A stretch of DNA of 64,000 bases from positions 11,470,001 to 11,534,000 of the forward strand of contig OX597825.1 in the NCBI GenBank assembly GCA_951406725.2. Direction: 5' to 3'. Of this stretch, positions 28,274 to 63,280 are shown piece after piece (position 1 is the first letter of the stretch; each line of letters begins with the position of its first letter). The translations under genes and the position numbers were made by a program. The notes under the pieces are model-generated. The model did no database searches. It saw only the letters and a program-made list of their open reading frames with translations, and was not told the DNA's origin. This DNA is from Octopus vulgaris. Lineage: Eukaryota.

Positions 28274-28481
28274 GATCGTTAGCCACTACACACATTTTTT
28301 CTCTCCTTTTTTTCTCTCCTTGTTTCTCTCCTTGTTTTTTCTGTGTCCCTTTCTGTAGAAGAGCGGAGGGTCGAAACGAAAAAGACTTATTCTATTCCTG
28401 AGCGTTATACTAATACATCTGTTTGTTTTGTACACAACCTGTCTTCGTCGCCTTTTGTTTTTTTCGTAAACTCTCGCTAAG
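28274..28481 (+). mobile_element. ~200-bp (TA)n-flanked element with a decayed minimal HHR motif (28349-28384)
   Basis: CTTT-CTGTAGA-A-GAGC-GGAG-GGTC-GAAAC-GAA-AAAG; the triad and stem II are mutated. Homologous to the 29620, 60961 and 63118 copies. Confidence 0.7.
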
Positions 28482-29419
28482 TATATATATATATATATAT
28501 ATATATATATATATATATATATATATATATATATATATATATATATATATATATCCATAGATGTATATTTATATATATGTATGTATGTATATATATATAC
28601 ATACATACATATAGCCCGAGGCTATTGTAGAAGACACTTGGCTAAGGTGCCACACTGTGGGACTGAACCCGGAAACATATGGTTAGTAAGCAAGTTACCA
28701 CACAGCATGTGTGTGCGTATATATATAAATGTATATATATATATATATATATATATATATATATATACATACAGAGCGAGAGATAGAGAGATAGAGAGAA
28801 AGAGAGACAGAGTCCGTCCATTGTTCGACGTGGGGCAGAGCCCAAAACATTTGGCTTCCCGTTATACCACGCTGCAGGATTTTATTCAATCTTCACCAAA
28901 TGAAATCCACATTCGATGCATCATTTTTATAGCACTATAATTAATTTAGCTTATTGAAAGGATGATATAAATTATTATTCTCTTCTAAATATATCGACGT
29001 TACGTATCATTAAGTTAAATATCTACAGTAGTTAATATATCATCTAAGTCCTGTAAATCTATCCATGCGTGCTCCATTATTGATAACTACGTTTTAAAAT
29101 TCTGACACCAAATACCCCCAAAGGTCTTGTCTCCTGTGACAGGAAGTCCATCGTTTGAATGAGTAAATGAACAAATCAAAGGCTTACATGGTAGTGAATT
29201 AGAAGTGTGCAGCTATAGTTGGTTTCCTTCTCAGGTTAACCAACGTAATTTTACTGTGTAAGACCAAGAATTAAAATACAGATCATAACTGTTTTCGCAA
29301 TTAGTAGCTAAACACTATCGTTAGCTTCTTAGTTGGTTGACGTCAAATTATGTAATTAAAACACAGACACATTCATAGTACACACACATGCGTGCGCATA
29401 CACCTATGTACGAAAATTC

Positions 29420-30056
29420 GTGGCTGTGTGGTAACTTGCTTACCAATCACATGGTTCGGCGTTCAGTCTCACCGATTGGCACCTTGGGCAAGTGTCTTCT
29501 ACTATAGTTTCAGGCTGACCAAAACCTTGTGAGTGGATTTGGTAGACGGAATTAGAAAGAACCCTGTCGGATATATATATATATATATATATATATATAT
29601 ATATATATATATATATATAACGGAAGATTTACGAAAATAAACAAAAGACGAAGGCAGGTGGAGTACAAACAAACAAATGTATTAGTATGGCGCTCAGGAA
29701 TATAAATAAAACAAGTCTTTTACGTTTCGAGCCTACGCTCTTCAACAGAAAGATACACTGAAAAGAAACACGGAGAGAAACAAGGAGAGAAAAAATTGCG
29801 TGTAGGGGCTAACGATCCAACATGGCGTTCTATATATATATATATATATATATATACGTATATCAGTGTCCTTGTCCCCCATCACCGTCTGACAACCTGT
29901 GCTGATGAGTTTACATCCCCGTAACATAGCGGTTCGGCAAAATAGTATGATGGAATAAGCACTAAGCTTAAAAATAAGTCCTAGAGTCGATTGTACGAGC
30001 AAAGCGGTGCTCCAGCATGGGCGCAATTGACTGAAACAAGTAAAAGAATAAAAGAA
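29420..30056 (+). mobile_element. SINE family B interrupted by a minimal-HHR element
   Basis: Head GTGGCTGTGTGGTAA..GTTCAGT..CCTTGGGCAAGTGTC; tail TGACTGAAACAAGTAAAAGAATAAAAGAA. Confidence 0.88.
29620..29830 (-). mobile_element. ~200-bp (TA)n-flanked element with a minimal HHR motif (29716-29753), nested in a SINE
   Basis: Minus strand reads TCTTT-CTGTTGA-A-GAGC-GTAG-GCTC-GAAAC-GTA-AAAGA, identical to the motif at 61040-61077. Confidence 0.78.
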
Positions 30057-30316
30057 TATTATTTCCAAGTTTTGGCACAAAGCGCCAATTTTAGATGGGG
30101 GTGTAAGTCCATTACATCAATCCCAGTACTCAGCCAGTCCTTATTTCTCGACCCTGAAAAGATAAAAAGCAAGGTCGACCTCAACGAAATTTGAACTCAG
30201 AACCCAAAGACGGATGAAATGTCGTTAAGACTTTTGCGTAGCTCACTGGCTTCGAAAATTGAATATATTGACTAACTGCAAGAAAGATAATAGAAACAAA
30301 TCACAACTGTATATAT

Positions 30317-30734
30317 TACTCTTTACTCTTTACTCTTTTACTTGTTTCAGTCATTTGACTGCGGCCATGCTGGAGCACCGCCTTTAATCGAGCAAATCGA
30401 CCCCGGGACTTTTTCTTTGTAAGCCCAGTACTTATTCTATCGGTCTCTTTTGCTGAACCGCTAAGTGACGGGGACGTAAACACACCAGCATCTGTTGTCA
30501 GGCAATGCTAGGGGGACAAACACAGACACACAAACACACATGCACATACATACACATATATACATATATACGACAGGCTTCTTTCAGTTTCCGTCTACCA
30601 AATCCACTCACAAGGCATTGGTCGCCCCAATGCTATAGCAGAAGACACTTGCCCAAGGTGCCACGCAGTGGGACTGAACCCGGAACCATGTGGTTCGTAA
30701 GCAAGCTACTTACCACACAGCCACTCCTGCGCCT
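30317..30734 (-). mobile_element. SINE family B, full length
   Basis: tRNA-like head, internal CA/TA tract, tandem AAAGAGT tail. Confidence 0.93.
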
Positions 30735-30824
30735 ATGTTAACATATATTTATATATTCATACACATGCATGAATAATTTGTACCTATATAAATACGCATA
30801 AATATATACGTATAGTTATCATTC

Positions 30825-31215
30825 ATTCGTCACGGTCTTTGGACTGCAGCCATGCCAGGCCACTTGAAAGAGGGTTCAAATCGAAAAGAATTCTACTTCA
30901 GTACGAACTTTTAAAGTCTGGTACTTAATCTAATGGACTCTTTTATGAACTGCTTGGTGTACAGAGACGTAAACTAAACAACACAAGCACAAACAGAAAG
31001 ATACACACACGCAATCATATGTATATATACACCCACGCATAGATACGACCAGCTTTGTCGTATATATATGCTTCGATCTATTGAGTCCACTCACAAAACT
31101 TTAGTTAACCCGGGGCTACAGTAGAAGACAATTTGCCCAAGGTCCACGCCGTGGGCCTGAACCTGAGGCCATGTAACCACGAAGTAATCTACCTACAACG
31201 AAGCCGTACCTGCAC
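30825..31215 (-). mobile_element. Old diverged SINE family B copy
   Basis: Collinear but degenerate motifs relative to 30317-30734. Confidence 0.7.
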
Positions 31216-61604: not shown

Positions 61605-61951
61605 GGCGCAATGGCCCAGTGGTTAGGGCATCGGACGTGCGGTCATACGATCGCAATTTCGATTCTCAGACCGGGCGTTGTGAGTGTTTATTGAGCGAAA
61701 ACACCTAAAAGCTTCACCCTGCTGTACTCTTTCACCACAACTTTCTCTCCCTCTTTCTTCTTGTTTCTGATGTTCCTGTATTTCAAAGGGTCCAGCCTTG
61801 TCACACTCTGTCTCACGCTGAATCTGACCGAGAACTACGTTAGGGGTACACGGGTCTGTGGAGTGCTCAGCCACTTGCACGTTAATTTCACGAGCAGGCT
61901 GTTCCGTTGATCGGATCAAGTGGAACCCACGTCCTCGTAACCGACGGAGTG
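61605..61951 (+). mobile_element. tRNA-derived SINE family C
   Basis: Head GGCGCAATGGCCCAGTGGTTAGGGCA..TTCGATTC; tail shared with the 33576 copy. Confidence 0.85.
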
Positions 61952-62042
61952 TCACGCGTCGCCAAATTATAAGAGAGATAGAGAGAGAGAGAAGAGAGAG
62001 AGAGAGAGAGAGAAGGAGAGAGAGAGAGAGAAGGTGAGAGAG

Positions 62043-62336
62043 AATGAAAGGCAAAGTTGACCTCGACAAAATTTGAACTCAGAACGTAACAGTAGACGAA
62101 ATACCTATTTCTTTGCTACCCACAAGGGGCTAAACACAGAGAGGACAAACAAGGACAGACAAACGGATTAAGTCGATTAAATCGACCCCAGTGCATAACT
62201 GGTACTTAATTTATCGACCCCGAAAGGATGAAAGGCAAAGTCGACTTCGGCGGAATTTGAACTCAGAACGTAGCGGCAGACGAAATACGGCTAAGCGTTT
62301 CGCCCGGCGTGCTAACGATTCTGCCAGCTTGCCGCC
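62043..62336 (-). mobile_element. SINE family A plus partial second unit
   Basis: Near-consensus; same multimer junction near 62100. Confidence 0.9.
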
Positions 62337-62770
62337 TTTAACGAGGTTAATGGTAAGAGACATTTTAATTAGACATTATGACATAAAATTATGAAATATC
62401 AACTCATACTAATAAATTAAGATAGATTAACTCTTTTTGGCAGTATATGATTATAAAGTATTAGACTTAAAAGAAAGATGAATAATTGCTAAATAGATGT
62501 GATTAATAATCTGGTGATTAATGAATGAAGCAGTGAGGACAAAGTAGTAGACGGAACTGTGCGGAATCTCATTACATATTTGTTATATTCGTGTGTCTGT
62601 TTGTTTGTGCGTGTGTGTATGTGTTTGTTTATGTGTGCGTGTGTTTGTATGTCTGTGTGTGCGTATGTTTTTGTGCTAATTACCGATGTATATATGCGTA
62701 CTTGTGTATGTATATATATATATATATATATATATATATATATATATATATAATTAGTTAGCATGCTCCA

Positions 62771-62849
62771 ACCGAATCTAGAAATAGAGTCAAAGAGATA
62801 TAGCTATTCCTTTAGCTATATCTCTTTGACTGCTATTTCTAAATTCGGT
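62771..62849. repeat. Near-perfect 36-bp hairpin with a 6-nt loop
   Basis: ACCGAATCTAGAAATAGAGTCAAAGAGATATAGCTA-TTCCTT-TAGCTATATCTCTTTGACTGCTATTTCTAAATTCGGT. Confidence 0.9.
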
Positions 62850-63117
62850 GTGTGGGAATTCGTCAAACTAATTTAGTATTATATATATATATATATATAT
62901 ATATATATATATATATATATATATCCTTTCATCCAAAATGGGGACGACGAAAACACTATTCCTGCATGTGAACGGCTTGAAAAATTGTTAAAATATTCAG
63001 ATATTTTCTTAACAGAAACCAATGGTAGCCTTAATATAAAAATAAAGACATTCTGTCCACCAATGCAGCGTTGAGCACGCACGTCGTTCGACATTCACAC
63101 ACACACACATATATATA

Positions 63118-63280
63118 TGGGGAGAATTCACCCCTAAAAAACAACAAAAGACGAAGACAGGTGGTGTAGAAAACAATCGCTCAGGAATTGAAAAAGTCGT
63201 TAACGTTTCGAGCCTACGCTCTTCCACAGAAAGGAACACAGAAAGAAACAAGGAGAAGAAAATGTAGTGGCTAGCGATAT
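63118..63280 (-). mobile_element. ~160-bp element with a minimal HHR motif (63198-63233)
   Basis: Minus strand reads CTTT-CTGTGGA-A-GAGC-GTAG-GCTC-GAAAC-GTT-AACG. It abuts a Helitron-like element. Confidence 0.72.

Follow-up and report, generated by a model that had tools for sequence, protein, structure and literature searches.

A dispersed Octopus vulgaris repeat with a minimal hammerhead motif carrying U at core position 6

Introduction

A 64-kb stretch of the Octopus vulgaris genome (contig OX597825.1, positions 11,470,001 to 11,534,000; referred to throughout as the window) contains copies of a non-coding repeat of about 210 nt, within which lies a motif resembling the minimal hammerhead ribozymes (min-HHRs) of Penelope-like elements (PLEs), with U in place of A at core position 6. 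The locus raises the question of whether U6 is a property of a repeat family or damage to individual copies, and of what an RNA with such a core could do. PLE hammerheads are poor cutters, and cutting is unneeded for insertion in one tested element; a successful family in which an almost invariant core base has been replaced throughout is a natural experiment on their role. Cleavage by U6 RNA would broaden the natural core consensus and mean that counts made with descriptors overlook whole families. Absence of cleavage would mean that the motif is kept for some other purpose, for example the binding of a PLE protein.

We find that U6 is a family trait rather than decay of single copies. The explanation we favor, with considerable reserve, is that the repeat consists of dispersed copies, mainly inert solos, which have retained a PLE-type minimal hammerhead fold with U6 and are predicted to cut weakly and with assistance.

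A family of short repeats

Five related elements of 168–229 nt are present in the window, which is AT-rich (34% G+C), non-coding and dense in microsatellites, and every one of them is solo (Table 1). An nhmmer profile built from the five recovers the same five at E values of 1e-32 to 1e-59, at the sites listed in a first-pass annotation of this DNA, with no sixth element below E 0.2 in the 64 kb. Pairwise identity is 79–92% among the four copies with U6 and only 56–60% between these and the element at 47323, and blastn gives no link through the motif between 47323 and the other four. The first-pass annotation had described a U6 family of five; since 47323 is a distant relative, it was rejected as a member and the family has four copies in the window. 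Two of these are identical over the 38 nt of the motif (29716–29753 and 61040–61077), as had been noticed, and the identity in fact extends to 79 nt from 61035. Extrapolated from four per 64 kb, a gigabase genome would hold tens of thousands of copies or more.

The anatomy of the five copies is that of a non-autonomous PLE derivative. First, their 3′ ends agree within a few bases and adjoin (TA)n, and their 5′ ends vary. Second, (TA)n stands directly at both ends of three of the five; copy 60961 has a short spacer between its 5′ end and (TA)n and copy 63118 has short TA runs only, so that the (TA)n association reported for all five stands in full for three. The background is not negligible, with 132 TA runs in the window and 12% of its length within 30 nt of one. 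Third, no open reading frame (ORF) was found within or beside the copies. Insertion into (TA)n is documented for PLEs of the Naiad, Neptune and Hydra clades, including cephalopod families (Craig 2021, PMC8557442), and is a likeness to those clades. The repeat likely derives from a Penelope-like terminal repeat; judging from this anatomy and the TA targeting, its copies in (TA)n were likely made in trans by the enzyme of a PLE.

Both intact copies also carry a 9-nt motif at their 5′ end (60963–60971 and 29818–29826) which we take to resemble a YY1-binding site and which may serve the repeat as a promoter element.

A minimal hammerhead with U at position 6

The hammerhead motif of copy 60961 was recognized both in the sequence directly and by a structural descriptor (a min-HHR pattern allowing at most one core mismatch); numbering follows Cervera 2014 (PMC4209133). 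Stem I has 4–5 pairs in the U6 family, mainly A-U. Position 6 aside, the core set (C3 U4 G5, G8 A9, G12 A13 A14, A15.1, U16.1 and H17) is complete in 29620, 60961 and 63118 and broken in 28274 and 47323; the string from core to stem III that had been described as shared by all five is found in three, and with full stem I included the whole motif is retained in only two (29620 and 60961). In copy 28274 (U6, A7) one pair of stem II is broken and U16.1 is missing, in copy 63118 (U6, G7) stem I contains a mismatch, and in 47323 A6 is canonical but the catalytic G12 is replaced by U. The variable features are otherwise as first reported: U6 is present in four of the five copies (all four close ones), an extra A follows A9 in all five, and position 7 holds U twice and G, A and C once each. 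The G10.1-C11.1 pair is retained in all four distinct rows, and stem III is a loopless palindrome in four of the five copies, in keeping with the original description of a numerous non-coding repeat that bears a minimal hammerhead of the PLE type.

Could this be a repeat of the short interspersed element (SINE) or miniature inverted-repeat transposable element (MITE) kind, with a hairpin that resembles a hammerhead by chance? Neither a coding partner nor a tandem was seen in the window, and Rfam reports no hammerhead at 60900–61200 and none among the best 150 of 388 rows for the window. The Rfam blank is uninformative here, however, because a canonical hammerhead at 5614 is missed too. The descriptor matches 60961, 29620 and 47323 (three of the five copies) along with the unrelated motif at 5614, and gives no match in any of ten shuffles; the divergent 47323 carries a canonical A6 half-core, and an alignment of the five copies shows no evident terminal inverted repeat. 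An origin outside PLEs therefore seems very improbable.

Comparison with published min-HHRs singles out position 6. The 56 PLE min-HHR rows of Fig. S3 in PMC4209133 have an extra base after A9 in 54 cases (A in 30 of these, by our own count) and A6 in all 56, and A6 is likewise found in 34 of 34 rows of File S2 of Craig 2021 (PMC8557442). The extra A, which had been offered together with U6 as evidence of a non-standard core, is therefore ordinary, and as part of the published consensus it was rejected as a novel change; U6, which is family-wide, is the sole departure. The remainder of the consensus is matched, from the U-rich 5′ flank, extra base and G10.1-C11.1 pair to the palindromic stem III and AU-rich 3′ flank. 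As position 6 is U in all four close copies, we regard the element as a min-HHR variant and not as a plain member of the class.

The element shares with the metazoan PLE min-HHRs of PMC4209133 a type I arrangement without loop 3, the 4-nt palindrome, extra base and G10.1-C11.1 pair, a short stem I, and mainly solo dispersed copies, differing from them in U6; the min-HHR of Acropora Neptune has an equal 4-bp stem II and 4-nt loop. Its loopless minimal stem III is closer to Neptune/Poseidon-type examples than to those of Hydra (PMC4209133, PMC8557442), which have a longer stem III and A6, whereas Naiads are without canonical hammerheads (PMC8557442). A diminished palindromic stem III and a dimer model are also points of likeness to the small PLE hammerhead variants that Lünse, Weinberg and Breaker (2017) described as cleaving as dimers (via PMC6765202).

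No natural A6U hammerhead was found in the published literature searched, and the available parts of PMC11014351, PMC6962438 and PMC13282606 contain nothing on U6. Lünse 2017, the likeliest place for an A6U report, lies outside that coverage, and the novelty of U6 among natural hammerheads is therefore provisional.

U6 as a family trait in public contigs

Copies beyond the window were sought in public sequencing runs, 20 of the 24 listed of which contain at least half of the element's words; these represent four coded organisms. None of the holder runs is on record as RNA, and the contigs show neither ends nor strand. Contigs of four runs were aligned to 60946–61176 at 80% likeness (11,037 in X1, 16,693 in X3, 16,138 in X5 and 3,296 in X9), with variants listed at a 2% cut-off. 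X9, which may be an RNA run, does not count here as evidence of expression, and depth summed over contigs is not taken as copy number.

In none of the four runs is a letter other than U listed for position 6 at this cut-off, and position 7 carries a non-reference letter in 41–48% of the depth in all four. It is this difference between adjacent positions that identifies U6 as a property of the family. Positions 3–6, 8 and 9, the extra A, G12–A15.1 and U16.1 are likewise without a variant row. The other variant rows within 61041–61077 are three CpG positions and 61076, all below 8%, the CpG changes in the stem III palindrome amounting to 3–8% family-wide. Depth over the motif is 2–10 times the flanking minima, and 61041 and 61080 are among the loose ends with the best support; diverged subfamilies therefore share the motif block best.

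Tandem copies look rare. Among 12 of 15 table rows for end-to-start joints, one contig of X1 joins the 3′ end of the element head to tail to its 5′ start, as PLE tandems do, and one of X5 has a 3′-end-to-5′-start joint across a TA run; tandems thus exist, and all five window copies are solo. This bears on the non-LTR (long terminal repeat) retrozymes, for which PLE origin and mobilisation have been proposed and which resemble the repeat in being non-autonomous, 200–350 nt long and equipped with a type I hammerhead (PMC7229834; bioRxiv 10.64898/2026.07.22.740005). Retrozymes are arranged in tandem, carry canonical hammerheads and have circular RNAs, whereas the window copies are solo, minimal and (TA)n-flanked; arrays of at least two units, each with a hammerhead, were not found in the window, and in the runs only single contigs have end-to-start joints.

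Predicted folding and cleavage

How would such a family have spread? In the favored explanation a few master copies would be transcribed, and a PLE reverse transcriptase-endonuclease would nick (TA)n and copy the RNA by target-primed reverse transcription in trans. U6 would have arisen once, before subfamilies diverged from one another in their flanks and at position 7, with the hammerhead fold retained afterwards. Cleavage would be slow, as a dimer or with protein help, and unneeded for most insertions, leaving most solo copies inert. In its favor, the hammerhead of a Poseidon PLE cut only with protein present and was dispensable for insertion in vitro (PMC11167929), and natural A6C variants retain a low activity (PMC3088659, PMC7151607).

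Several observations weigh against this explanation. First, with U6 and U7, as in both intact copies, the predicted monomer is a closed rod of −10.2 kcal/mol in which the core strands are paired, and the double-hammerhead is less stable than two monomers by 5.7 kcal/mol and than the best dimer by 12.1 kcal/mol. When position 7 is A or C, however, the gap to two monomers shrinks to 1.3 kcal/mol, similar to A6 versions (0.9–3.7), and this speaks for the explanation. Second, pairwise mutagenesis of another hammerhead found changes in the CUGA region to be of low activity except for a C3-G8 swap (PMC9901934). Third, conservation of the core over the flanks is only a trend (Fisher p 0.07–0.18): in the contig table 0 of 12 core places vary, against 21 of 98 outside (p 0.12); common variants, position 7 excluded, occur at 1 of 37 places in the motif and 15 of 98 outside it (p 0.07); and among the four window copies 11 of 12 core places are invariant, against 83 of 118 elsewhere (p 0.18). 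The variant table moreover favors the reference and seems to give no more than two alternative letters for any position, and the absence of a row is therefore not proof of constancy. Fourth, the covariation in stems I and II that had been suggested as a check is not significant in the window copies; 86% of cells are paired, with only four distinct rows, and the one double change is equalled in 146 of 500 shuffles. Fifth, the stem II loop, which had been thought to vary, is identical in three of the four U6 copies and has no other letter listed at 61057–61060 in the four runs; it equals the core in constancy, although catalysis alone would not call for this. Finally, an autonomous partner was not found, and the search for a coding PLE sharing the terminus gave no match to six short motifs in the available part of the Craig 2021 supplement (PMC8557442). 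The U6 hammerhead is probably a weak cutter at best.

Much of this would also be expected of a dead ribozyme, in which A6U would have inactivated a founder hammerhead and amplification would have gone on through PLE copying that is independent of cleavage. The constancy of the block would then be owed to descent, to the binding of a protein or to a rod-like hairpin stabilized by U6. The insertion of PLEs with mutant hammerheads in vitro (PMC11167929) and the success of Naiads without canonical ones (PMC8557442) fit such a history, as do the constant loop, the lack of significant covariation and the pairing of U6 with A15.1 in the predicted monomers of the intact copies and of a similar motif on metagenome contig L007. 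It accords less well with the contig data, where the varying site is position 7, the sole site that the hammerhead model frees (though U there extends the rod), and where G12, A13, A14 and G8 are without listed variants. Loss of activity in the founder is a serious but less probable alternative to weak, assisted cutting.

At the other extreme, U6 could be fully compensated, through dimer contacts, the constant stem II loop or another metal ion, so that cleavage would be no less efficient than in A6 min-HHRs. Fixation across subfamilies and presence of the sequence in four coded organisms are in its favor. Further, natural A6C variants, slow or low in Mg2+, cut better in Mn2+ (PMC3088659, PMC7151607); one of them, in phage Bcep176, resembles the present family as a natural position-6 change but has C and not U, belongs to a single phage locus and not a high-copy animal repeat, and was tested in vitro, the low Mg2+ activity being its own. 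Published position-6 data, however, show reduced rates (PMC3088659, PMC7151607, PMC9901934), and stem I has few pairs, mostly A-U.

Scanning metagenomes for the U6 pattern produced 13 matches, and the same scan gave none in viral contigs and none in prokaryote genomes. Eleven of the 13, in microbial-type DNA and without U16.1, look like chance and were rejected. The other two, L007 and L013, lie in AT-rich, animal-like DNA with flanks unrelated to the window family, and both continue with U16.1 and C, which the pattern does not demand (U16.1 in two of two against none of 11, p 0.013, post hoc). With an independent-looking U6 motif, a completed palindrome and, in one, a 6-bp stem I, they speak for a competent core; but both are single-copy and may be decayed A6 motifs. 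We consider a fully competent U6 core improbable.

A further claim, that U6 RNA is a natural hammerhead that cleaves as a dimer, in Mn2+ or with PLE protein, at very high copy in several related animal genomes, we hold only tentatively and think rather unlikely. On that reading the class would have gone unseen because published descriptors fix A6, the catalytic boxes of the Cervera and De la Peña 2014 descriptor being invariant (PMC4209133). If true, this would be the first natural A6U core found and an uncounted class of PLE ribozymes, possibly extending to other animals (L007, L013).

Other repeats and motifs

Table 1. Positions of the repeat copies, of the parts of the hammerhead motif and of other features (window coordinates unless a contig is named)
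Feature	Position	Strand	Remarks
Element copy 1	28274..28481	+	5′-shortened; between (TA)n runs; motif 28348-28385
Element copy 2	29620..29830	-	211 nt, full length; flanked by (TA)n at both ends; motif 29716-29753 intact, with U6
Divergent relative 47323	47322..47542	+	Motif 47393-47427
Element copy 4 (60961)	about 60960..61174	+	Full length; reference for contig alignment
Element copy 5	63118..63285	-	Shortened, internal deletion; motif 63197-63234
Minimal type I hammerhead motif, copy 60961	61040..61077	+	Seen directly and by structural descriptor
Stem I, copy 60961	61040-44/61073-77	+	5 bp
Core positions 3-9, copy 60961	61045-51	+	
U6	61048	+	Family-wide core change; 4/4 close copies
Position 7	61049	+	Free core position
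Extra A after A9, copy 60961	61052	+	
Stem II, copy 60961	61053-56/61061-64	+	4 bp, 4-nt loop
G12-A14, copy 60961	61065-67	+	
4-nt palindrome (stem III), copy 60961	61068-71	+	H17 next; predicted cut after 61072
U6 min-HHR-like motif	L007:2459-2500	-	6-bp stem I
U6 min-HHR-like motif	L013:725-757	+	6-bp stem II, no stem I
Canonical type I hammerhead	5608-5652 (in 5464-5797)	+	6-bp stem I, 5-bp stem II, self-complementary stem III
Second repeat family	8842-9269, 21300-21535, 33804-34041, 36851-37101, 51232-52233, 62038-62340		
Third repeat family	30324-30735, 36016-36436, 42789-43182, 57232-57722		
Broken mariner-type transposase remnant	54960-55789	+	Pfam HTH_48, E 8e-08
tRNA-like match	6099-6170	-	39.7 bits, above Rfam gathering score
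MITE-like inverted repeat	46638-46801 and 46980-47141		164 bp, 94.5% alike

The canonical hammerhead at 5614 is enclosed by a perfect inverted repeat with arms of 114 bp and a spacer of 106 nt, and its stem III resembles those of Hydra-clade PLE hammerheads (PMC8557442). Its double-hammerhead is the predicted best dimer, and activity as a ribozyme appears more likely for this hammerhead than for the U6 family.

A heavily decayed ORF with many stops and frameshifts occupies 38400–41400 on the minus strand, and its fragments look Hydra-clade-PLE-like by eye against the Craig 2021 alignment (PMC8557442). Pfam is blank for three fragments, a homolog search gave 0 of 321 candidates and the Atlas search none, and the four matches of a representative search (three YDG-domain proteins and one weak match to unrelated domains) were taken as spurious. 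It was rejected as a demonstrated PLE partner because its hammerhead was not found.

Two further repeat families are dispersed through the window. One is abundant, with a unit of about 185 nt that is partly tandem and 85–96% alike; the other is SINE-like, about 400 nt long and 74–92% alike.

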